Origin: a virus
Length of the DNA stretch: 64,000 nt
Direction: 5' to 3' (one strand)
Virus record (IMG/VR): IMGVR_UViG_3300022539_000610
Coordinates: 50,032-114,031 of that record
The notes beneath the pieces were generated by a model, which saw only the letters and a list, made by a program, of their open reading frames with translations, searched no databases and had not been told where the DNA came from. The translations under genes and the position numbers were made by a program. Shown piece after piece: positions 2,050-41,858 of this stretch. Each line of letters starts with the position of its first letter. Position 1 is the stretch's first letter.

Positions 2050-2982
2050 CTATTTTCTCCCCCCTTTCTTCTTTTGTCCTTCTGGCCCTATCTTCTCCAT
2101 CCTATTCCACTCCACTTGGCCCTCCTCAGAAGCTAAGGCATTTTTGTAATGTTCTTTTATCTCGTAGCCTGATCCATGGTAGTATTCATCAGGATGTCTA
2201 GTATAACCTCCTCGCATTCTCAAACTTTCAAATTTACTTATCTTTGCATACGCACCATCATTCCTTCCTCGTCTACCTCGACCACTAAGTACCTGCTTGT
2301 AGTACTCCTCATATTCGGGATTTGCAAATTCAGCGTCTTGTTCTAAAATACAAGGTTTCCCTAGCTCCACATACTTCAAACCTAATTTGCGCAGCCTAAT
2401 ACAGAGGTATGAGTAAATACTTCCTACTTTCTTCCCTGTACCTATACTCCAGGGACTACGATGACCAGTCAAAAATTGAATATTATACTCATCAACAAGT
2501 TCTTTCTTAATAGCTAGGCCCCCACCAAATGGGATGTTCTTTCTCCATTTCTTTTCTACCAGTACACAACCACCTCTTTCTGTCTCTAAAGAATTTTCCT
2601 TCACAAAGCCCGGCATGCGAAGGACACAAAAAATATAATCAGGACAAACCTCACTACTAACTACGAGCTTGAAGTTATCGAACCAGCCTTCCATACAGAA
2701 ATGATCATTACTAAGCACTAACAACCAATTTGCTTTAGGATTCGCCAACTTCCAAGCATCGTTGATAGCAAGCCCTAAATTATTATAGTGATCTAACACA
2801 AGATGATCGACAACATTTGCTGCACGATATTCTTTTAACATTTCGACTGTGCCATCAGTGGAGCCATTATCAACCACAATAAACTCATGTTCCCCTCTCG
2901 GAGCCCCCTCATGAACAGAGTCAATACAAAATTTAGAAAACTTTTTCCTGTTATAAGTTGTTAAACTTATGGATACGAACAT
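2050..2982 (-). CDS. glycosyltransferase family 2
   Basis: VSISLTTYNR, FIVVDNGSTDGT. Confidence 0.9.
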   Translation of the reverse strand: MFVSISLTTYNRKKFSKFCIDSVHEGAPRGEHEFIVVDNGSTDGTVEMLKEYRAANVVDHLVLDHYNNLGLAINDAWKLANPKANWLLVLSNDHFCMEGWFDNFKLVVSSEVCPDYIFCVLRMPGFVKENSLETERGGCVLVEKKWRKNIPFGGGLAIKKELVDEYNIQFLTGHRSPWSIGTGKKVGSIYSYLCIRLRKLGLKYVELGKPCILEQDAEFANPEYEEYYKQVLSGRGRRGRNDGAYAKISKFESLRMRGGYTRHPDEYYHGSGYEIKEHYKNALASEEGQVEWNRMEKIGPEGQKKKGGRK

Positions 2983-3022
2983 AGCAGCCCCTTACCTCCA
3001 TCATTGCATCTTTAAATCCCAG

Positions 3023-3640
3023 TCATGGCATTTCAGCCCTCTTAAGAATCTTAGGCCACAAATCCCCTGCTTTGCCGCACCGACTTCCCAACCAAGTCTT
3101 TTGACCTTTTGCAGATTGATCAAGGGTACCAAACTTTTCAACTCTCCAATTATCATGACCAGGTTTCTCTATTTTCCAATCCTTACCATAATGTGTTTCC
3201 ATATATTCCTCAAGATGGTTGGGCATTGGATACACGCTACCCAGAAACTTCACTAGTTGAGGTTCCTCATACCATCTAACCCTCTCTACAAATTTCAGTC
3301 CAGGAGTCGAGCGTGGGAAGGATTCATAATACTCACCATTCTTGCGAAAAAACCACATATTAAGTTTAGAAAGCCTTCTCCCCCATGCAAAATAACTCCC
3401 GGGTCTCTTTATTTTAAAACCACATGTTCGTAAGGATTCATAAAGTTGTATCCGTCGTTTAGCAGAAACCTCAATGAAAATCCCCATGTCCACATCTGTA
3501 TCCCACGGCACAATTGCCTTATTTCTAACATAACCTAGTACAATACCATCTATGACCACCCAGGGAATTCCAACATTATCAAAAGCAGTTTTACAAGCCG
3601 CTAAATCTAATGCTATATTTTGAGACCTCGACTTTTTCAC
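3023..3640 (-). CDS. LicD family phosphotransferase
   Basis: GIVLGYVRNKAIVPWDTDVDMG and EEYMETHYGKDWK, the LicD/fukutin signature. Confidence 0.85.
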   Translation of the reverse strand: MKKSRSQNIALDLAACKTAFDNVGIPWVVIDGIVLGYVRNKAIVPWDTDVDMGIFIEVSAKRRIQLYESLRTCGFKIKRPGSYFAWGRRLSKLNMWFFRKNGEYYESFPRSTPGLKFVERVRWYEEPQLVKFLGSVYPMPNHLEEYMETHYGKDWKIEKPGHDNWRVEKFGTLDQSAKGQKTWLGSRCGKAGDLWPKILKRAEMP

Positions 3641-4596
3641 AACCCGAACACCTCCTTTAATCGAAGACCTACAGCCTTTAACCCATGTGTAGTTGCTGCC
3701 CAGTCTCTCGTGAGATGTTTTAATTCGATCAAGTTATTCTTAGACATAGATAATAATTTGTCCATAACTTTAACAAGCTCTTCTTCAGTATTTGCCACTT
3801 GTAAGGAGTGACCCCCATATACTTGTTTATATCGTTCCTCACCAAACTTGAAATTGGTTATCACAATATCACCTAACGCTGCTGCTTCCAATGCAGCGAT
3901 ACTCCAATCATGCTTATTTACACTGATAGAGGCATTATTTAACGATTCTATGTAAATATCACATTCGTTCACCCTCTTCAGATTCTCAACCCATCCAACC
4001 CCATCTTTAGAAAACCTATATTGCACCTTATTCTTATATCTTTTCATGACCTTGTTTATTATGTATGAACCTTTAAGCGTAAGATCTTTCCCACTGCCTC
4101 CACTCAAGTCGACCACCTCTTTCCCATGGGCATCTGGAGCACTGGGAAAGTGCCCCACTATCACTTTGCTGCCCACCGAAAAATCAGGTTCCATATCTCC
4201 TATATAAGCAGCCGGAAGCATCCATACCTCATTTCTAGCACCTAATCCAAGCATCTCTGCTGTTTGAATAAGAGAAACGCTCATATATCTAAACGCTTTA
4301 TTTGCCTTTCCAGAGTGCAAACGATACCTAGTTCCCCCATGAAACACCACTCTTTTCTTCCCTGAAAGACTAATAGTTAATGGTATTTGCTTTGAATGCA
4401 TCCACACTATCACATCAGCCCGTTCTACCATTCTCTCAAGTTCTCTACGATTTTTGTATATAATTGCCCGGCAAGAAGGACTGTACGAGGTAGGCCTTTT
4501 AGAAACTGCTTGGGCTTCTACTCCTACTTCATTTAAACACTTAGCAAAGATTGCTCCTACAGCTGCATAATCACGAACACTTAAAAATAGCACCAT
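3637..4596 (-). CDS. glycosyltransferase (GT-B, GT4-like)
   Basis: VGHFPS...KGSYII, ECDIYIE, IAALEAAALG. Confidence 0.7.
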   Translation of the reverse strand: MVLFLSVRDYAAVGAIFAKCLNEVGVEAQAVSKRPTSYSPSCRAIIYKNRRELERMVERADVIVWMHSKQIPLTISLSGKKRVVFHGGTRYRLHSGKANKAFRYMSVSLIQTAEMLGLGARNEVWMLPAAYIGDMEPDFSVGSKVIVGHFPSAPDAHGKEVVDLSGGSGKDLTLKGSYIINKVMKRYKNKVQYRFSKDGVGWVENLKRVNECDIYIESLNNASISVNKHDWSIAALEAAALGDIVITNFKFGEERYKQVYGGHSLQVANTEEELVKVMDKLLSMSKNNLIELKHLTRDWAATTHGLKAVGLRLKEVFGL

Positions 4597-4617
4597 AGTT
4601 GATTCCCTTTAGTCTAT

Positions 4618-5775
4618 TCACACGCTTATTTTAACCTCACTTTTAACCAAATGTTCGCAAATGGCCGCTTTAACATATTCACACATTGAATTACAGCACC
4701 CACTAATTATGTAATGCTTTTTTGTAGGGACGGGCATACGTTTAAACGTCTTAGCCCACCATGAAACCTTAACCTTATGTGTTATATTTTCTGTAACGGC
4801 ACCACTAACTCTGAAGAACTCCCCTGGCCGACCAGAGTGCCTCCCAAGTTTTAATAGTCCAGGATCTATAAGTTCCATTAGTTGTACTTTAAGACGACCT
4901 TTCCCTTTTTTACTCATAACAAAATTCATCATTGTATCCATTACATCAAGTGAAGTAAACGGGACGATTATTGCCCCAAACTCATTTTTGATGTCTAAAG
5001 AACCAGAAAAATAATTACGAAGCAAATTCCCCACACTCCAATTCCTAAGAAAAGTTTCATCAAAGCGAGTAGCAGTCACAAATTGGATGTCACTAAGTTT
5101 CAATCTCAGATTTTTAACTATATTTTCGATTGTTGCATAGATTAACATCTCACTTACAATACATCGACTCACTTCACTCCAATGTGCTCCTATGTAATCA
5201 AAATCTAATACATCAGCAAAATAATCCCTAGGCCTATCTTGCACACTTACTATACTTTTCTTAGACCAATCCATGTAATCTGCAATTTTTAAAAACTCAT
5301 CGACTTCTGGCTCGATACAAATATAGTAAATTTCTCCCTTTAAACCAAGCTTTTTTATAATACCTGAAATAACTCTACTATCATATCCAGAACTATGAGG
5401 CATCACATGGACTTTAGAATCATCCCAATATTCCACCAAATAATTACAAATATCCTTGTAGACTCGCCCGGCCAAAGAGCCCCCGGGCTTAGGGCAGGAA
5501 GGGGATTCAAGCATAGTATAAAGCCTAGGATGTAGCTCCGGCAGTACAGCACTGATTTCATTAAACATTGTAGCTTGGGAATAAGTTTCTACAGAATTTT
5601 GATCTAAAGAGCCTTCGAGTACATTTCTTTTAGGCCACCCCGTCCAATTTCTCGAAATGTAGGTTTTATTAATTGAGACTTCACCTATACTTTTAGCTGC
5701 TTCTTGAATCGACTTAAATACTTCCTGCCCAGCCTTGTAGTGAGCCATTGCATATGGTATCTGAGGTAATATCAC
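4618..5775 (-). CDS. asparagine-synthase-like (PP-loop) amidotransferase
   Basis: HSSGYDSRVISGII PP-loop (SGGxDS variant) and IIVPFTS; lies in the glycan cluster. Confidence 0.55.
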   Translation of the reverse strand: MILPQIPYAMAHYKAGQEVFKSIQEAAKSIGEVSINKTYISRNWTGWPKRNVLEGSLDQNSVETYSQATMFNEISAVLPELHPRLYTMLESPSCPKPGGSLAGRVYKDICNYLVEYWDDSKVHVMPHSSGYDSRVISGIIKKLGLKGEIYYICIEPEVDEFLKIADYMDWSKKSIVSVQDRPRDYFADVLDFDYIGAHWSEVSRCIVSEMLIYATIENIVKNLRLKLSDIQFVTATRFDETFLRNWSVGNLLRNYFSGSLDIKNEFGAIIVPFTSLDVMDTMMNFVMSKKGKGRLKVQLMELIDPGLLKLGRHSGRPGEFFRVSGAVTENITHKVKVSWWAKTFKRMPVPTKKHYIISGCCNSMCEYVKAAICEHLVKSEVKISV

Positions 5776-6311
5776 TTCAACTCCTTTACAACGAGTTCTC
5801 CTGCTCCCCCACTATCGTAGATATCATAGTTTAATTTTGCCTGCTGAAAAACCTCATTTGGAGAATTTCCAGTAACGTTACATCTTTTTTCTAATTGAGA
5901 CTTGATTTCATCTGCATCAAGTCTCAAACCAATATCTTTAGCTGGGTTCCCTACGACAACATGAAACGGTTCTACATTCTTAACAACAACTGCTCCCATA
6001 CCCACTATAGCAAAGTCCCCTATAGTCACTCCACCCTTAATCAAAGCCCACCAACCAATCCAAACATTGTCACAAATAACAATGGGCTTTGTTCTTTCAT
6101 CACAAGCACTACCTATAAGTTTGCTACCATATTTAGTTTGAAGACAAACTCTATAGCTGATCCGACAATGTTTACCAATTGTGATGTTCGCTCCAACTGC
6201 TCGAAGCCATGAATCAGGGTTTATATAAGTACCAGTTCCAACTCTCACTTTACCACCGTGACGCTCGAAAATGTACGCTTCAATTGATTTCGGGAATCTA
6301 CTTTTTCCCAT
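5772..6311 (-). CDS. hexapeptide-repeat O-acyltransferase
   Basis: PIVICDNVWIGWWALIKGGVTIGDFAIVGMGAVVVKNV...VGNPAK. Confidence 0.9.
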   Translation of the reverse strand: MGKSRFPKSIEAYIFERHGGKVRVGTGTYINPDSWLRAVGANITIGKHCRISYRVCLQTKYGSKLIGSACDERTKPIVICDNVWIGWWALIKGGVTIGDFAIVGMGAVVVKNVEPFHVVVGNPAKDIGLRLDADEIKSQLEKRCNVTGNSPNEVFQQAKLNYDIYDSGGAGELVVKELK

Positions 6312-6312
6312 A

Positions 6313-7530
6313 TCAAAACCTTGCTAAATAATCGTTAGGGTTATCAGACTTTTTGCTATGCATCTTAAGTATTGATCCCCTATGATATGACTTGATACCT
6401 TTTGATCCAATCAAATCATTCTTAACACAATAATCATACATACCCGTCCCAGGGAATGGATAAAACCATGTCACTTGCCGAATCCCTGGGGATATTATCC
6501 GATTTATCTCCACTGTAGATTTGCAAAGCTCATCGTCATTAACAAAAGGCCACCCTATCACGTTGAATGAAGTAGTTGAAATCCCCGCAGCCCTCAACAA
6601 CTTGAATGCATTTATAATCTGCTCATTCGTCATACTTCGCCTAAGATGTTTCTTTCTAAAGTTTTCATCCCCACATTCTATCCCCAGCGCTACGTATCTA
6701 CAATCAGTGCTCTTCATAAAGTTCACAAGATCAGCATTAATATATTCAACTCGTCCCATACAACCATAAGGCCTGCCTACTTCTTCCTTTATAGCAGAAA
6801 ATAACCTTTTCACATAATCCAAATCCGTAAACATCATATCATCGCCAAAATAAAACAATTTGAATTCAAACTTGGTTTTCAAATATTTAAGTTCTTCGAT
6901 AACCTGATTGACCGGCCTACTTCTAACATAGCCACTCTTATATAGCTTCAAATACACTCCATTGCAGCAATATGGACAGTTAAATGGACAGCCTCGGGTA
7001 GCATTTACATAGATGTACTTTCCGGCAACCTTGTAAGGAAAAATACCCCATGGAAATCTAGGAAGTGTAGATAAATCCTCTGGAGGTCTGATCGGATTTG
7101 TATACACCTTTCCATCACTACGATAAATTAAGTTAGGTACTTCAAACAAAGAATCTTTTCCATAACTTACCAAAAACTCCTTGACGAACGATTCACCTTC
7201 TCCCACACAAACATAATCAATATATGGAAACTGCTCTAAAATTTGCAACTTCATTATTGTAGGATGAACTCCCCCAACCAAAACAGGAATATCACAACTA
7301 GCTTTAACTCCCTTAATAATACTAATCGCCTGAGACCAAAGAGTAGTCATACTTGATACCATTAAGATGTCAAAACTCCCCCCAACAATTTTTCTGATCA
7401 CCGCAGCTGGTTTAATACCTCTAGTATCGTAAAACTTTACTCTATGCTCTTTAGGGATCGAAGACACAATATAACCCGCCCCTCTACCAATATTCTTAGC
7501 TGTACTTGTATGCACAAAAGCTATATTCAT
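6313..7530 (-). CDS. B12-binding radical SAM enzyme (class B methylase-like)
   Basis: VGGVHPT, GEGE, TRGCPFNCPYC (CxxxCxxC), GIECG, PFPGT. Confidence 0.92.
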   Translation of the reverse strand: MNIAFVHTSTAKNIGRGAGYIVSSIPKEHRVKFYDTRGIKPAAVIRKIVGGSFDILMVSSMTTLWSQAISIIKGVKASCDIPVLVGGVHPTIMKLQILEQFPYIDYVCVGEGESFVKEFLVSYGKDSLFEVPNLIYRSDGKVYTNPIRPPEDLSTLPRFPWGIFPYKVAGKYIYVNATRGCPFNCPYCCNGVYLKLYKSGYVRSRPVNQVIEELKYLKTKFEFKLFYFGDDMMFTDLDYVKRLFSAIKEEVGRPYGCMGRVEYINADLVNFMKSTDCRYVALGIECGDENFRKKHLRRSMTNEQIINAFKLLRAAGISTTSFNVIGWPFVNDDELCKSTVEINRIISPGIRQVTWFYPFPGTGMYDYCVKNDLIGSKGIKSYHRGSILKMHSKKSDNPNDYLARF

Positions 7531-28947: not shown

Positions 28948-30462
28948 CTATTCAAGAGAAGCACCATGAGGATGTATAATGTACTTATTGATAATCTTCT
29001 CAGCCACAGTTGTCGGAATCATGTGAAGCTCCGCAACCATCTCATTGTTATTAATACGATATGGAGTGTTGGTATCACTATCACACTTCACCTTAAAAGT
29101 AGTGATCCCTCGATTAGACGCAATCCACTCCAAAAATGGATTAACCAAATTCTCATACTGCCTCCAGGTGATCTCATCATGAGGCTCCCACTGCAAGTAT
29201 CGAACTGCAGTAGCGATTGCTTTTTCAGCATACATCAACATCCTAATGATATTCACATTCTGGAGCAGGGAGGGCTTCCTCTGAAGATTTTTGTTTCCAT
29301 CCACCAGAATTCCATCAACCGTCGAACGGATGGGATTAATGTTATTCATACTACCATAGGTAACCTCAATGTCCCCAACAGTCATATCGAATCTGACATC
29401 AAGTGTATCGTAGAGGATACCACGGTTAGGTCCCGCCGCTGCATACCATGGAAAGGCCACGCTATCAGAGAAAGCAAATATTCCTAACACTCTCACTGAG
29501 GGTGGCACCCAGATCTTTTCCTCATTGTAGGGATCATTAATCTGAATCCAAGGCCCATATATGGCAGCACGATTAGCCGAGGCCACAGGTGTAGTATATG
29601 CCCCAGTGCCCCTAACATAATTAACCATAGTGGCAGCTGTAGTAAGATCTGGGGTATCAAGAACAGCAAGACAATCTGCCCTTGCAACAGCAGTGACAAT
29701 CAAGTAAGCTGCAACAACATCATCATGGTTAAACCCTGGTGCCGATAACAGATTAACATCAACTGTGGTGGCATCAGCAAACAAATCAATACCTCCCGTT
29801 ATGTCAGAGGTACCGAGGGTGTCTGTTCCATCATCTCCCCCAGCCAAAAGCCAAGTAGTGGAAGCATCAGGCACAGCCTCTCCTGTCATTGCAAACTCAA
29901 TATACAGGGAGTTTTCATTGATAATCTTCTCTACATAACGACTGTCTGAGCTTTCATCAAAAACTATGTCTTCCCAGATCTCAAGTGGATCATCTTCATC
30001 TACGTCAGCCCCCAAAGCAAACACCTTTATATTATATACAGTCTCAGTGACTGCTGGGTCGGCTGTAGGCACAGTGTCTGTCTCCATAGTCACCTGAACA
30101 CCGTCTGCCCAGGTCCCTTCTGAAATTGCCCTAACCACCCCTATCTTCTGTGTTACAGAGTCTGCTGAGTAAATATCATCTTCAGCTTTATCTGCATTAC
30201 TGTCTCCAACTCTAACTATCTTTAGTTGGTTACCAAACCTCAAGAAATATAAAGCTGCATGAGCAGCTACCCCGTCATCTCCACTCAAAGGTTCTCCGAA
30301 GTCCTCAAGAAACTGAGGTCGACTAGTTACAAGCGTCACCTCATCCATTGGGCCTTTCGCAAAAGGACCAGTAATACCGCAGATTGAGGTTGAAATCATT
30401 GGTATATACAGACTTCGGTCTATCTCTTCTGAATACACACCAGGTGCAATGTATACAGCCAT
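28948..30462 (-). CDS. tail sheath protein (gp18-like)
   Basis: YIAPGVYSEEIDRS, GPFAKGP, WVPPS, PWYAAAGPNRG, INPI, VKCDSDTNTP. Confidence 0.96.
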   Translation of the reverse strand: MAVYIAPGVYSEEIDRSLYIPMISTSICGITGPFAKGPMDEVTLVTSRPQFLEDFGEPLSGDDGVAAHAALYFLRFGNQLKIVRVGDSNADKAEDDIYSADSVTQKIGVVRAISEGTWADGVQVTMETDTVPTADPAVTETVYNIKVFALGADVDEDDPLEIWEDIVFDESSDSRYVEKIINENSLYIEFAMTGEAVPDASTTWLLAGGDDGTDTLGTSDITGGIDLFADATTVDVNLLSAPGFNHDDVVAAYLIVTAVARADCLAVLDTPDLTTAATMVNYVRGTGAYTTPVASANRAAIYGPWIQINDPYNEEKIWVPPSVRVLGIFAFSDSVAFPWYAAAGPNRGILYDTLDVRFDMTVGDIEVTYGSMNNINPIRSTVDGILVDGNKNLQRKPSLLQNVNIIRMLMYAEKAIATAVRYLQWEPHDEITWRQYENLVNPFLEWIASNRGITTFKVKCDSDTNTPYRINNNEMVAELHMIPTTVAEKIINKYIIHPHGASLE

Positions 30463-30608
30463 AATCACTATCCTCCATTAAGCAACGTTCTCTCCGTCCA
30501 AAATTCAAACGTATACCTAATCCTTCACAGGTAGTGCTGTGGCAGTGATATACTTAAGATCATCCGGCTCAACAAACGTCTCAGGTTAAACTATTATCAA
30601 ATCTCCTT

Positions 30609-36493: not shown

Positions 36494-36892
36494 TTAAGTA
36501 CTCAAAAGATTAAGCCACCGCTCAGCCCTAAAACCTTCCTTTGAATACTCACCATCAGCATACATACAATACCGAAAAATTCTAGGGAGGAGCGTTCTCC
36601 TCACTTCTCGAATTCCATAATGATAATAAATTGCCGAACGTTCAAACTCTGTCCTGTTAGCAAGCTTCTCCGCAACCAATCTGACTTTACTATATCTCTT
36701 CATATTCTCAAGTAAAGTGCTTCCCAATCTCACAGCCCATCTCCACTTCGGATCAAACCGGGCTATTTCTAGTTTCACTTCTATTGAATAAAGCTCCTCG
36801 ATCATAAATCCAATCGGCCCAAGTCGATCAAGGGGTACTTTCTTATTTGGTCTACATAACAAACTAGGTAAATACTTTTTTATATTAAACAT
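36494..36892 (-). CDS. hypothetical protein between duplicated terminators
   Basis: 132-aa ORF with GGGAGG RBS. Confidence 0.65.
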   Translation of the reverse strand: MFNIKKYLPSLLCRPNKKVPLDRLGPIGFMIEELYSIEVKLEIARFDPKWRWAVRLGSTLLENMKRYSKVRLVAEKLANRTEFERSAIYYHYGIREVRRTLLPRIFRYCMYADGEYSKEGFRAERWLNLLST

Positions 36893-36966: not shown

Positions 36967-37106
36967 TTAGCTGAAGTTAGTTACAACAATCCTAACTACG
37001 AAGTTAGGAACCACAACCTTCTGTGCTGCCCAAACTGCCGCAGCCTTCTGACTCAGGAGCGGGTTAGCTCCCGTGGGAAGTGCTGAAGTTACAACAAGCG
37101 GCATAT
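36967..37106 (-). CDS. major capsid protein, exon 3
   Basis: (Y)MPLVVTSALPTGANPLLSQKAAAVWAAQKVVVPNFVVRIVVTNFS*; continues the gp23-type YAPY-x-P motif. Confidence 0.9.
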
Positions 37107-37481
37107 CATTATCTTCATTAAAGTTCGTCACACTTTAATCGTAGCCAATTATACACTGACTACTGCTGCATCTTTTTGTATACATGCAGATGGGACTATC
37201 TCACAATCTATGGTATCAGCAACTTTCCATAGATCCTCACCGTTACTTCCTCCATTTAGAGCTTTACACTCTTTGACTAGAGGCTTTCTTACATCAGAAA
37301 TAGTAAACAACTTCTTCTAATGTTTTTAGTCTCTCAACCTTACAACTGTAGCCCTCATTTGCTTGAGGTTTAGCTACAGGATTTCGGCTCTTGTATTACC
37401 CCTACGCAGCCATACGAAGGGGTTCCACAGATTTAGGTAAGTTTTCCATTGAAGATTGCTCTTCAACGCCGCATATTTCAT
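37107..37481 (-). ncRNA. group I intron 2 in MCP (375 nt, no ORF)
   Basis: P1 CCGU|AU-GAAAU-AUGCGG with U.G at the junction; P2 UUGAAGA-GCAA-UCUUCAA; P3 CUUACC/GGUGAG; R GUUGAGAGACUA; S GAGAUAGUCC; terminal G; splicing restores CCG TAT ATG. Confidence 0.92.
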
Positions 37482-38540
37482 ACGGGGCGTACACTGCTGC
37501 AGCCTCGAAGGGGCTCGTGCCCTTGTAGAGACACAGCACGTGGTTGGCAGTAAGCACAGAATTACTAGGCACTCTCACTACTGTAATACCATCGAGGGTA
37601 CCATAGATGTGAGGACCAAGGGTGTTGCCATCAGAAATCTTGGTCCACCCAGGCAGCGTACCTATAATAGAAGCAGCACTTCGACCAGCAATCATTACAG
37701 AGATGGTTCCTCGGCCTGCAAGACCTAACATCAGGTTCTCAGCCCGCATTACAGCATCTTTAAATGACTGTTTATGCTCGAAATAGCTAACACCAGTTCC
37801 AGCAGTATTAGTCCAGTTGTAGCTATTAGTGGCTCCCCAAGTTGCATGGGCATTTACCAAGTTATAGATCAACGTGTTCATAACCTCAGCATTGATAGCA
37901 GAGATCAAATCCGACGCCAACTCATCCTCAGCAATCATCCCAAACCTACGCCGCAGGGCATAGGAGGCCTCTAAGCCAATGGTTTCCTTCAAAGCATACA
38001 CACATGCCATGATGGAATCAGACTCAAGATTCATATAAATCTGGGGTATATCAGTAGCAGCTGCCAGGTCCTGCTGGTAGTCAACATAAATCGTGTTGCC
38101 ATCACCAGGATCATTTTCCAACTCTACAACCAGGATACCAGTGGCGTAACCAACTGTTCCCTGGATATCGTAGCCTACCAGAACTCCTGCACCATTGTCT
38201 GTGGCGGTATACGTTGTGCCACCGTACGTTACAGTAACCGTGACCGTATAAGGTCGAATTGGCCTCAGTGCGAGAGGTATTGTATGGGTGTAACTCAGAT
38301 CACCATACTCTGTGGTCTCGTCAAACGCTACCTGGGTCTGACACGCACTGGCAAACTCCCTCGGGTACGCTTCTGCATGGGCACGAGGATCAAAGATCTT
38401 CTGCCCAGTAGTTACATTACCCTTGGTTGTTTGGGATAAAATGTTTTTGAAGTAGATGGTTCCCCTTTCCTCTGGGATCGCCTGAATACTAGCGCAAACC
38501 CCTATTGGGCTTGTTCCATATGCTACTGATATGACATCGA
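37482..38540 (-). CDS. major capsid protein (T4 gp23-like), exon 2
   Basis: DVISVAYGTSPIGVCASIQAIPEERGTIYF...DELASDLISAINAEVM...GTLDG.TV...LYKGTSPFEAAAVYAP; frame open upstream of the ORF-track start. Confidence 0.92.
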
Positions 38541-39955
38541 CATTTATCTTCGCTACAGTTCGCTACTCTGTAACCGTTAAGCCTTTGCTTAACTGCTGCA
38601 TGTCTCCATGCAAGGTGTGACTATCTCATCACCTCTTCTAATGAAGAGGGCCTACCGCTTCGTTAGAAAGTGATCGTCACTTCACTCCCTAATCCGTTTT
38701 CACGGAACCCGCTTGGGCCTACTCCCTTCCGGGATAGTCGATGAACTTTCCACACTTAGCACATCTAAGTGAGTATTAGCTGCTGGTTGCCTTAACAAAT
38801 CCTCAATCCTCGAAGTTACATCAACAAATCGTTCTTTGACAACGAAAATTTGATAATCCAGTAATTTCAATTCCTCAAACTTACTTTTCTTACTTGACTT
38901 CATGTAGTAACTATGAGTTTCTTTCAACCTATTCAAAACATCCAAATGCGCTTGATAATCAACCTTAGCAATAAATAAGTTACGTATCCAGTTTACTACT
39001 TTTTTAAACCGAACCCTTCCACTTCCTGGATTTTCTATCTGTAATAATGTTGGATTCGGAATCCGAATAATGCAAATATTATAGTTTTCCTTAATATACC
39101 TATCTCTACTAACATCGTATTTAAACTGACGTTTATCCACAACGTGATGAAATCCATCCACTTCCACGCCAAGTCGCAAGAAAGGTATATAGAAATCAAG
39201 CAAATAAAAACTACGAGGAGTAAACATAACCTTTTGAAGTTGGACTGAGTTACCCTTTCTGAGATTTTTACAGATCTTCTCACGCCTATTCCTAACCATT
39301 GTCCCTACTCCACGATACTCAAATGGAAAAGATCCAAACTTAGGCTGGGTACGTAAAAGACCTACAAGGGCATTAACAACATAATCAAATATATCTTCAT
39401 ACTTAGTAGAAACCAACAAATTTTCATAACGAAACTGCGCTATTCTATCTACCCTTCTCCCACCAACCTTTATATTATCTATCCTAACATTCCTATAGTC
39501 ACTATCAATTAACTCAAACTTAAACTCATCATCAAATACACCGACGAATGATGACACAAGTAAAGGTAAAAAGTTCAAGTTAATACTACGAATCCCAACA
39601 ATCTCAAACTTAACCCTCCTGACTTTCCTTTTAGTATCATTATAAAGACTAAACTTCCAAGAATCAAGAACATGAGGGTTCCTTACCTTACTTGGGTTCA
39701 AACGAACATTCCCATAACTACTAACCTGAAATCTATCCAAGTACTTTTTATCGCCAGAATAGATATCTGCATCTATATTAACCCAATATTCCATCTTCAA
39801 AACTCCTTTGCTTCATATCCGATAAGGAAAGAGTGAAGCTTTCTTCTCTTACTAACTATCCTTACCTCGTATAGTAAAACTAAAGTCTACTATTGGTCTT
39901 CCAGCAATTCAATAGGTTTAAACTTAGGATTACTCCTAAGCCGCTCTCGATGCGA
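38541..39955 (-). ncRNA. group I intron 1 in MCP (1415 nt, contains an endonuclease ORF)
   Basis: P1 GCUU|UCG-CAU-CGAGAGC with U.G at the junction; P AAUUGCUGGAA; Q AACCAGCAG; R GUUCAUCGACUA; S GAGAUAGUC; terminal G; splicing restores GCT TTC GAT. Confidence 0.92.
38700..39800 (-). CDS. intron-encoded homing endonuclease (NUMOD4-like N-terminus, Vsr/DUF559-like nuclease)
   Basis: EYWVNI...FQVSSYGNVR; YLLDFYIPFLRLGVEVDGFHH...DVSRDRYI...IIRIPN; AGGAG RBS and TTG start. Confidence 0.85.
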   Translation of the reverse strand: MKMEYWVNIDADIYSGDKKYLDRFQVSSYGNVRLNPSKVRNPHVLDSWKFSLYNDTKRKVRRVKFEIVGIRSINLNFLPLLVSSFVGVFDDEFKFELIDSDYRNVRIDNIKVGGRRVDRIAQFRYENLLVSTKYEDIFDYVVNALVGLLRTQPKFGSFPFEYRGVGTMVRNRREKICKNLRKGNSVQLQKVMFTPRSFYLLDFYIPFLRLGVEVDGFHHVVDKRQFKYDVSRDRYIKENYNICIIRIPNPTLLQIENPGSGRVRFKKVVNWIRNLFIAKVDYQAHLDVLNRLKETHSYYMKSSKKSKFEELKLLDYQIFVVKERFVDVTSRIEDLLRQPAANTHLDVLSVESSSTIPEGSRPKRVP

Positions 39956-40196
39956 AAGCTACATCAGGAATCTTACCCAGTTGAGTCAGGGTTCCATCGT
40001 CCTCACAGATAGACCTGTAAATTTCAAAGGCCTCCAACTGCTTGCCTAACTGATAGTAGTCATACGGAGTGATAGATCTCACTTTAGAAAGAGGACTCTT
40101 TTCTAAAAGCTCCATCTGCCCTTTATACCGCTTGAGGTAACCATCAGCATCTCGCTCTACGTTCTTTCCTAGAGCTTCTTCCGTTATGCTAATCAT
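39956..40196 (-). CDS. major capsid protein, exon 1
   Basis: GGAGG then ATG 40196 (MISITEE...IPDVA); directly follows the protease/scaffold gene; spliced product is 479 aa. Confidence 0.88.
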
Positions 40197-40295: not shown

Positions 40296-41858
40296 TCATC
40301 TTGAAAACTGACCTAACATTCTCTCACCACGACTTGTACTAGAGATAGACTTTTTTGACTCAGAGATCTCTTCACCCTCACCAGGCTCATCCTTGTCTTC
40401 CTTCATCTCATAACTTTTGGAGACAGAAAGTCCGAAGTTCTCTCTCATGATGTTACCAGTTTCAATAGCAGCGTCCTTGGAACCAGTGTTGTCAAGTAAT
40501 TTCCCAGCCTTTTCATCATCGATCCCAAGGGCCTCTGCGACATCTTTTACATCCCGGGTTCGTTTGCTTTTTCTCATATCTTCAACAATTGTCTCCGTGA
40601 GTTCCAAGAGTCTCTCAATTTCCTCTGGGGTACCGAGTTCCAGGAATGACTCAGCCAAATCCATCACCCCTTCGATGTCTTCTGGGGTACCGAGCTCAGA
40701 GATCTTCTCAACAAAGTCCTTTGTCTTTTCAAATGCCTCGTTGATCTCACCAGGGGCACCAAGATCTGTATACTGCTGAAGCACATCCAGAGCCTCATTC
40801 AACTCTGCGATTGAGCCTAGTTCTTTGATGGACTCAGCAAGTTTCTTTGCTCCCTCTAAGGCCTGCTCAACCTCTTCCGCTGATCCTATATCCTTATAAG
40901 ACTCAGTGGCAGCAGTAAGATCCGTAACTTGCTCCTTGGCTGCTTTAAGATCCTTCTGAGTGCCCTCAACTGCCTCTAACACCTTAGAGAGCTCTGAGAC
41001 AGTTCCCAGCTCCTTATACTCCTTCAGGGATTCCTCAGAAGCACTTACCCTATCCTTGGCAACTGCGAGTTTGCCTTTTAAGTCTTCGTTGTCTGCCAGT
41101 ACCTTGTCCAGATCAGCTTGAATGTTGTTCTTCTCTGTCACAAGATTTTCCAGCATTTTAGTTTCTTTCTCTTTAGCTTCCATAATGAAAACCTCCTCAT
41201 TGGTTTCTTGTTCTTGTTCTTGTTTATTATCAGCAGTAGAATCTTCATCTACTACTAGTTCTTCTTTTACTATCTCAGGATCAATTCCATCCTCAACTAA
41301 CTCAGGAATTGCCCCTTTAACTCCTCCAATCTTCACAAAGTCAAACGTTTCCAACCTGAAAGTGTCAGGATCTATAGCTTGTGCTTCGCCTGTCGGAGTA
41401 TTAACCTTACCTTTAAACTTCCCATAAGCACGAGAGGAGGTTGCAAGTCTAACTCCTCCTCGAAAATATGTATTCAACACCTGCCCTGTTGGTGTGTTAA
41501 GAATAAGAGCTTCAATCATCCCTATGTGTGGATCGCCCTCATCCATCCAGAGCTTGACTATTCTATGAGAGGCTTTACCTTCACGAAGGGCCTTGTCATC
41601 CAGCTCCTGATCATGTCCAATGGTGCCAAGCATGAGGCCATTGTCCATATTTTTCTGATTCTCAGTAATCACTTTCGACCAAAGCTTCTTCTTGTAGTAC
41701 CTCCCATTTTCGCTTGCTCCATCAACAATGAAGCCCTGCCCACGAACACGGGCTAAGATATGCTTCCCATCTATAATAGGGTCACCCTTGGCCTCACAAA
41801 GTTGCCAGGCCGTTTCAAACATAAATTGGTCTCTAATAAGTTCTAATCCATTTTCCAT
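40296..41858 (-). CDS. prohead protease (T4 gp21-like) fused to scaffold/core domain
   Basis: NGRYY, GTIGH, ASHRI, ILNTPTGQ, SSRAYG, FRLETFDFV; then acidic coiled coil with repeats. Confidence 0.92.
   Translation of the reverse strand: MENGLELIRDQFMFETAWQLCEAKGDPIIDGKHILARVRGQGFIVDGASENGRYYKKKLWSKVITENQKNMDNGLMLGTIGHDQELDDKALREGKASHRIVKLWMDEGDPHIGMIEALILNTPTGQVLNTYFRGGVRLATSSRAYGKFKGKVNTPTGEAQAIDPDTFRLETFDFVKIGGVKGAIPELVEDGIDPEIVKEELVVDEDSTADNKQEQEQETNEEVFIMEAKEKETKMLENLVTEKNNIQADLDKVLADNEDLKGKLAVAKDRVSASEESLKEYKELGTVSELSKVLEAVEGTQKDLKAAKEQVTDLTAATESYKDIGSAEEVEQALEGAKKLAESIKELGSIAELNEALDVLQQYTDLGAPGEINEAFEKTKDFVEKISELGTPEDIEGVMDLAESFLELGTPEEIERLLELTETIVEDMRKSKRTRDVKDVAEALGIDDEKAGKLLDNTGSKDAAIETGNIMRENFGLSVSKSYEMKEDKDEPGEGEEISESKKSISSTSRGERMLGQFSR

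Follow-up and report, generated by a model that had tools for sequence, protein, structure and literature searches.

The 64,000-nucleotide stretch analysed here (the window) forms the right-hand part of one virus contig of IMG/VR (IMGVR_UViG_3300022539_000610; 114,031 bp), which is approximately 53% complete according to CheckV, and it contains a gene for a Gp23-type major capsid protein. This single capsid gene is very probably split by two mobile introns that belong to group I (phage IA type) and that would be self-splicing and spread by endonuclease-driven homing. The colinearity of the exons with uninterrupted homologues, the RNA family of the inserts, their covarying structure, the fold family of the endonuclease encoded within the first of them, and natural alleles with empty insertion sites were observed directly.

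The capsid gene starts with an ATG at 40196, 5 nt downstream of a GGAGGA sequence, and ends with a stop codon at 36969-36967. Exon 1 ends with GCT T at 39956 and is continued by TC GAT at 38540, where exon 2 begins; similarly, exon 2 ends with CCG T at 37482 and exon 3 begins with AT ATG at 37106. Joined in this way, the exons, none of which contains a stop codon or a frameshift, form an in-frame coding sequence of 1440 nt, i.e., 479 amino acids and a stop codon. A preliminary description of the window had proposed the same three exons and a gp23-like product, and both the boundaries and the family were recovered. Indeed, PF07068 (Gp23) matched exon 2 in the Pfam search (52.8 bits, with a cut-off of 24.4) and scored 60.4 bits in the genome search, where it was the sole Gp23-family match on the 114-kb contig. 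The gene is the single Gp23-type major capsid gene of this phage on the 114 kb searched. A search with exon 2 retrieved 110 relatives, mostly of 460-490 amino acids, which carried PF07068 and which, when named in their source, were major capsid proteins (for example, that of Rhizobium phage RHph_TM39). The best of these relatives (P0004) was an intact protein of 486 amino acids with 81% identity. The closest cultured relatives by capsid protein were Rhizobium phages of approximately 200 kb (53% capsid identity), and a megablast search of the capsid locus against cultured phages gave no match.

When aligned by means of MAFFT with 15 uninterrupted homologues, the spliced capsid protein was colinear and gap-free at both junctions, and the junction peptides PDVAFDVI and YAPYMPLV, which had been expected for intronless homologues, were identical in these 15 proteins. 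The junctions lie inside two of the most conserved motifs (...GKIPDVA-FDVI... and ...VYAP-YMPLVVT...). In addition, empty insertion sites were found in the DNA of related metagenome loci, namely in L029, L053, and L009 for the site of the first insert (codon 81; site 81) and in L054, L029, and L030 for that of the second (codon 434; site 434). In L029, the DNA reads GTGGCTT/TCGATGT across empty site 81 and CTCCGT/ATATGCC across empty site 434. ORF finding at the capsid locus of the window yielded three capsid-like fragments (93, 239, and 54 amino acids) and one ORF of 366 amino acids, in agreement with the earlier statement that gene callers fragment this gene. Such separate ORFs would also be found if the capsid gene were truly split, a free-standing endonuclease gene and a spacer separating pieces that are translated apart and assemble as fragments, comparable to the split DNA polymerase genes of some T4 relatives. 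This arrangement is highly improbable, as exons 2 and 3 possess neither a start codon nor a ribosome-binding site at their true 5' ends, exon 3 comprises only 45 codons, both junctions fall within codons, and the second insert is ORF-less yet has a complete group I fold.

All sequence tests applied identified both inserts as group I introns, with scores far beyond chance. A first test concerned the group I model RF00028 of Rfam, which in E-value mode (4.2-kb search) aligned over its full length with intron 2 (37492-37172; 44.0 bits, E 4.3e-9) and with intron 1 (38856-38596; 37.1 bits, E 4.9e-7), and which on the 114-kb contig matched these two inserts only. The covariance-model search that had been advised as a check was therefore positive for both introns, though under the gathering score of 50 bits, so that a default Rfam scan misses them; indeed, Rfam at its gathering threshold gave no match over the whole window. 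A second test made use of a covariance model (R1) built from the last 140 nt (3' 141 positions) of ten introns from the capsid genes of other phages, the introns of the window and their two closest intron relatives being excluded from the training set. As this model is restricted to the 3' 141 positions, P3-P7 lie outside it. R1 matched intron 1 at 38684-38541 (75.2 bits, E 1.6e-21), ending at the predicted terminal G, and intron 2 at 37269-37106 (52.4 bits, E 1.6e-14), running one base past the predicted 3' splice site. No third R1 match was present in the 64-kb window and none in the other 50 kb of the contig.

Thirdly, the predicted structure covaries. In the 26 best family matches, including both introns of the window, standard pairs made up 96.2% of the cells, compared with 65% when shuffled and 29-46% when the partners were slid, and both sides had changed in 23 of the 25 pairs; this alignment was fitted to the model and is thus biased towards structure. 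A separate MAFFT alignment of 11 short introns including intron 2, which is without that bias, was folded by RNAalifold into P3, P4, P5, P6, P8, P9, P9.1, and P9.2, with 36 of the 46 pairs compensated. In alignment A2, MAFFT had misplaced the 5' P7 strand of intron 2, and this alignment was therefore left out of the P7 counts. In both introns of the window, P7 is formed by GACUA/UAGUC, as noted before, and in relatives by the compensated pair GACCA/UGGUC. Hence, the core helices P3-P9, including the P3/P7 pseudoknot, were found with covariation. The conservation of compensatory changes indicates selection on the RNA of the related introns.

Fourthly, the splice sites have the features of group I introns. 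A U before the 5' splice site, a G at the intron end, and an intact reading frame occurred together, for each intron, only at the junctions proposed beforehand, and ligation of the exons at these junctions restores a conserved, uninterrupted gene. The predicted P1 U.G pair is U39956.G39946 in intron 1 and U37482.G in intron 2, and the terminal G is G38541 and G37107, respectively. The 3' ends are nearly identical, intron 1 ending with ...GAAGAUAAAUG at 38541 and intron 2 with ...GAAGAUAAUG at 37107. Taken together, RF00028, R1, the folds, the covariation, the U.G pairs, and the terminal G bear out the two group I introns of the preliminary description, including its account of the splice sites and 3' ends. 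Alternatively, the inserts might be inteins or group II introns, for which nothing speaks beyond the gene being interrupted. This alternative is refuted by the sequence, as the inserts are out of frame with the exons and contain many stop codons, so that read-through ends after 6 and 26 codons. Furthermore, Rfam in E-value mode gave no match in the region to group II introns or to any further RNA family, and the ORF of intron 1 matched no intein or reverse-transcriptase family of Pfam and PHROGs.

The minimum-energy fold of intron 2 (z = -8.29) contains P1 with the U.G pair, P2 with a GCAA cap, P3 (CUUACC/GGUGAG) enclosing P4-P6b as well as P7.1 and P7.2, and furthermore P8, P9, P9.1, and P9.2. 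A distant blastn search with intron 2 gave no match. For intron 1, the fold of the full RNA gave P1, P2, P8, P9, P9.1, and P9.2. P3 and P4 were placed by comparison with L030, a locus with a capsid protein that is 86-97% identical and with an ORF-less intron of 383 nt at site 81. The first 67 nt and the last approximately 230 nt of this ORF-less intron are approximately 93-95% identical to intron 1 by inspection (83% over all aligned columns), and the alignment indicates that the ORF of intron 1 is an insert in the P5 loop. The placement of P1-P6 of intron 1 in the end of the ORF by RF00028 was ruled out, as the L030 alignment puts the 5' strands of P1-P4 upstream of the ORF. Two hairpins occur between GACUA and GGUGAG in intron 2, and three between P7 and P3' in intron 1 (38734-38723, 38718-38693, and 38692-38663). 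Hairpins between P7 and P3' (P7.1 and P7.2) represent the layout of T4-type IA introns, and both introns were assigned to subgroup IA on this basis, a class assignment above the level of IA1 and IA2.

A patch of intron 1 of approximately 40 nt (38705-38751), covering J6/7, P7, and P7.1, was 85-97% identical in 98 records of cultured phages, including phages of Pectobacterium, Yersinia, Campylobacter, Pseudomonas (KIL phages), Klebsiella, and Escherichia. Hence, this type of ribozyme is widespread. In the KIL phages, the matching sequence is covered by the portal gene of the annotation, and these phages may thus hold unannotated introns of the same type.

The ORF of intron 1, which is out of frame with exon 1 and is preceded by AAGGAG 8 nt 5' of its ATG, is best read as encoding a Vsr/DUF559-like homing endonuclease, whose activity and target are predictions. 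As a single sequence, the ORF gave weak matches (DUF559 of Pfam, E 0.0024; PDB 3HRL, E 0.44), and a word-based homologue search found only the ORF itself. An exhaustive HMMER search returned 152 relatives, nearly all of which aligned over residues 165-255 approximately, and DUF559 was present in 27 of the 30 top relatives (best E 1e-35). D200, E211, D213, G214, H217, D227, and N247 are invariant in this family, which thus has a Vsr/DUF559-like domain of the EDxHD type with conserved acidic and histidine residues. Compared with PDB, the family profile matched 3HRL (E 2.9e-10), the 'mobile intron protein' 3R3P (E 8e-4), and the Vsr-like domains of PvuRts1I and AbaSI. The protein 3R3P, which we take to be I-Bth0305I of Bacillus phage 0305phi8-36, is likewise encoded in a phage group I intron, although the match is a distant one at profile level and the N- and C-terminal regions of the ORF of intron 1 have no assigned family. 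The last 87 nt approximately of the ORF (38700-38786) overlap P4', P6, P7, and P7.1, with its UGA stop codon in the loop of the hairpin UCCGU-GAAA-ACGGA, and this stretch is almost unchanged in the ORF-less intron of L030.

According to the proposed mechanism, the late pre-mRNA would fold into a ribozyme core, upon which an external guanosine would attack after the U of the P1 U.G pair. The freed 5' exon would then attack after the terminal G, and ligation of the three exons would give the frame of 479 codons. The endonuclease of intron 1 may cut the intron-less capsid alleles of co-infecting relatives, and repair would then copy the intron into them. Intron 2, which lacks an ORF, is related to the endonuclease-bearing intron of locus L064.

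Several points weigh against two functional introns. Both RF00028 scores are below the Rfam gathering score, P1 of intron 2 contains one C-C mismatch, and P3 and P4 of intron 1 were set manually with the aid of homology, since they mispair with ORF sequence when the 1.4-kb RNA is folded to minimum energy. Furthermore, the catalysis, the splicing, and the efficiency of splicing of both introns are predicted properties, and, as the contig is approximately 53% complete, a second, intact capsid gene may be present in the unsequenced part of the genome. The low scores and the incomplete contig would also fit introns that are genuine by origin and of which one or both no longer splice, the gene being a pseudogene on a defective or chimeric contig, or another capsid gene being present elsewhere. 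Such a loss of splicing is improbable, since the exons contain neither stop codons nor frameshifts, the joined product shares 81% identity with an intact homologue and fully keeps the junction motifs, and all core helices are intact, as are the U.G pair and the terminal G. In addition, the compensatory changes in related introns point to selection at the RNA level, and no second Gp23-family gene was found on the 114 kb. The features of the introns and of their surroundings are given in Table 1; the genes around the capsid locus, which all have minus-strand orientation, constitute a late module of the myovirus type.

Table 1. Capsid gene, introns, predicted helices of intron 1, and neighbouring genes (window positions)
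Feature	Position	Strand	Remarks
Capsid gene exon 1	39956..40196	-	80 codons and first base of codon F81; putative propeptide with I63-C64-E65
Capsid gene exon 2	37482..38540	-	1059 nt; bases 2-3 of codon 81 to base 1 of codon 434
Capsid gene exon 3	36967..37106	-	Bases 2-3 of codon 434 to stop codon
Group I intron 1	38541..39955	-	1415 nt; after first base of codon F81
Group I intron 2	37107..37481	-	375 nt; no ORF of note; after first base of codon Y434
Putative homing endonuclease ORF	38700..39794	-	364 amino acids; in P5 loop of intron 1; Vsr/DUF559-like domain at residues ~165-255
Intron 1 P1	39959-39953/39949-39943	-	U39956.G39946 at splice site
Intron 1 P2	39942-34/39929-21	-	
Intron 1 P3	39916-11/38656-51	-	Homology to ORF-less L030 intron
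Intron 1 P4	39906-01/38786-81	-	Homology to ORF-less L030 intron
Intron 1 P6a	38771-65/38759-53	-	
Intron 1 P7	38739-35/38623-19	-	GACUA/UAGUC
Intron 1 P8	38649-43/38638-32	-	
Intron 1 P9	38612-07/38602-597	-	
Intron 1 P9.1	38593-87/38582-76	-	
Intron 1 P9.2	38574-68/38558-52	-	
Head-maturation protease/scaffold gene	40296..41858	-	phrog_207, E 6.6e-17; just upstream of capsid gene
Tail sheath gene	28948-30468	-	Same late module
132-amino-acid ORF	36494-36892	-	Just downstream of capsid gene; no Pfam or PHROG match

Related introns occur frequently in the capsid clade of this phage. Capsid-protein scans of IMG/VR and JGI metagenomes resulted in approximately 46 distinct related capsid loci, in which junctions with a U before the intron and a G at its end that restore the capsid reading frame were sought with a script. 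At least 14 of these loci carry related introns (the intron-bearing loci being L001, L024, L026, L028, L030, L036, L051-L054, L059, L060, L063, L064, and L067), at 16 called sites in the numbering of the window, namely 81, 88, 102 (two phases), 109, 110, 270, 278, 287, 337, 392, 404, 429, 431, 434, and 437; the site count is to be read as approximately 14-16, since the junction of L052 (109) and the second break of L067 (404) are uncertain. Site 337 (FEH/KQS) is filled in seven loci and site 81 in the window, L030, L036, and L059; it is probably filled in L010 too, where an R1 match ends just before the exon. The capsid gene of L059 (identical to L062; Ga0233437_1008549 and Ga0233431_1003145), at 2318-7195, consists of six exons and five introns, the latter at codons 81, 110, 270, 337, and 392 of the window numbering; all five match R1 and three of them contain ORFs. 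Some related introns, such as those of L024 (99.3 bits) and L026 (82.6 bits), score above the Rfam cut-off. The ORFs of the related introns belong to GIY-YIG with NUMOD3, to LAGLIDADG, or are unassigned, and the introns share a common tail (...ACGA(A/C)C-hairpin-GAAnnUAA(A)UG). Breaks in L055, L057, and L058 were rejected as introns; they consist of an adjacent frame change and, as there is no insert, were treated as sequencing or assembly frameshifts. Thus, approximately one third of the sampled capsid genes of this Gp23-type clade carry related introns, with up to five per gene. This makes the clade a good natural system for the study of intron spread, loss of endonuclease ORFs, and change of insertion site, and for that of the tolerance of phages to splicing where each virion requires hundreds of copies of the protein.

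A possible change of insertion site concerns intron 2. Among the approximately 46 loci, site 434 is occupied in the window only. The closest relative of intron 2 is an ORF-bearing intron of 1251 nt (L064:225-1475), in a gene for a capsid protein with 94% identity. This intron is located at codon 437, 8 nt downstream of the site of intron 2. By inspection, the cores of both introns share approximately 85% identity (73% when all aligned columns are counted), and their P1 guides are one transition apart (GCGGCG in intron 2 and GUGGCG in L064). The codon-437 site of the window itself is UGCCGC and thus lacks a U at -1. These observations fit a change of insertion site, of which the two introns may be a natural record; its route may have been reverse splicing or repair.

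Intron-split capsid genes are already known, and the present case is a further example. In crAss-like phages of the Delta and Zeta groups, capsid genes contain group I introns, and one capsid gene occurs in five fragments, three of its four gaps containing intron-type domains (Yutin et al. 2021, PMC7886860). As in the present case, these are uncultured phages in which several group I introns, part of them with endonuclease genes, interrupt the capsid gene, so that gene callers fragment it; they belong to another lineage with another capsid protein family than the Gp23-type one. Similarly, RT-PCR and protein sequencing showed that a capsid intron of mycobacteriophage LittleE is spliced (Pope et al. 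2013, PMC3706429). This intron, most likely of group I according to its authors, carries an endonuclease and interrupts a highly expressed capsid gene too; it differs in that it is the only intron, that its endonuclease is of the HNH type and encoded on the opposite strand, and that the phage is a siphovirus. A capsid intron of lactococcal phage Tuc2009 is cited in the same paper (PMC3706429). The statement in the preliminary description that introns in this gene are unusual was overstated and is out of date, as capsid introns have been published for these phages (PMC7886860, PMC3706429) and are common in the present clade. Several group I introns in one virion-structure gene are also found in the tail tube gene orf142 of Staphylococcus phage Twort, with three introns (Landthaler and Shub 1999, as cited in PMC11878797); this is another gene, of a phage of a Gram-positive host, and exon skipping was reported for it. 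Furthermore, introns occur in terL of rV5 (PMC3606486) and of Jug phages (PMC12880540).

The introns of td, nrdB, and nrdD (sunY) of phage T4 (IA2; RF00028) share with both introns of the window the group I core with P7.1/P7.2 between P7 and P3', the U.G pair at the 5' splice site, and the terminal G; an endonuclease ORF looped out from a peripheral helix and ORF-less variants in relatives are common to both systems as well. In contrast, the present introns interrupt a late major capsid gene instead of nucleotide-metabolism genes, and their RF00028 scores are below the gathering cut-off. In addition, the putative endonuclease is Vsr/DUF559-like instead of GIY-YIG or HNH, and its ORF is located in P5, where it overlaps P4'-P7.1. 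The case thus adds to the evidence for a spread of group I introns beyond DNA-metabolism genes, into the late phage genes with the highest expression. Moreover, as gene callers report three fragments, this capsid gene is missed or truncated in capsid phylogeny and marker-gene surveys.

The peptides that would result from unspliced mRNA have a common end. Read-through stops 6 codons into intron 1 (...FASRAA-stop, 39955-39935) and 26 codons into intron 2 (...PLRMAA-stop, 37481-37402), and Ala-Ala-stop is also found in four related introns (L030:948, L024:3725, L053:1153, and L064:225). The tails seen are ...SRAA, ...LRMAA, ...RLAA, ...RRAA, and ...AKAA. An Ala-Ala end of the read-through occurred in 6 of the 27 family introns, representing approximately four independent lineages, but was absent from all 54 peptides that the other two frames give up to their first stop codon (Fisher p = 0.0009). 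These six were the only Ala-Ala-stop cases among the 1308 stop codons in all forward frames of the 27 introns. The tails share their Ala-Ala C-terminal end with the bacterial ssrA degradation tag. It is tentatively proposed, as a rather doubtful idea at present, that the ssrA-like tails may be an adaptation by which these capsid introns reduce the damage caused by unspliced mRNA. If so, truncated capsid fragments, which are potential poisons of assembly, would be handed to host proteases such as ClpXP. A literature search on Ala-Ala read-through tails found no paper.

Finally, the capsid protein contains a putative maturation site. In phage T4, cleavage by the prohead protease takes place after [IL]-x-E, the site in gp23 being after E65. 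In the spliced capsid protein, residues 63-65 are I-C-E, as had been pointed out in the preliminary description, and the motif [ILM]-x-E-[ED]-[DEQ]-G is kept in all 15 aligned homologues. Given this conservation and the head-maturation protease gene just upstream, maturation at I-C-E65 is plausible, in which case the protease would cut off the capsid propeptide. The N terminus contains L30-L31-E32 as a second candidate cleavage site.

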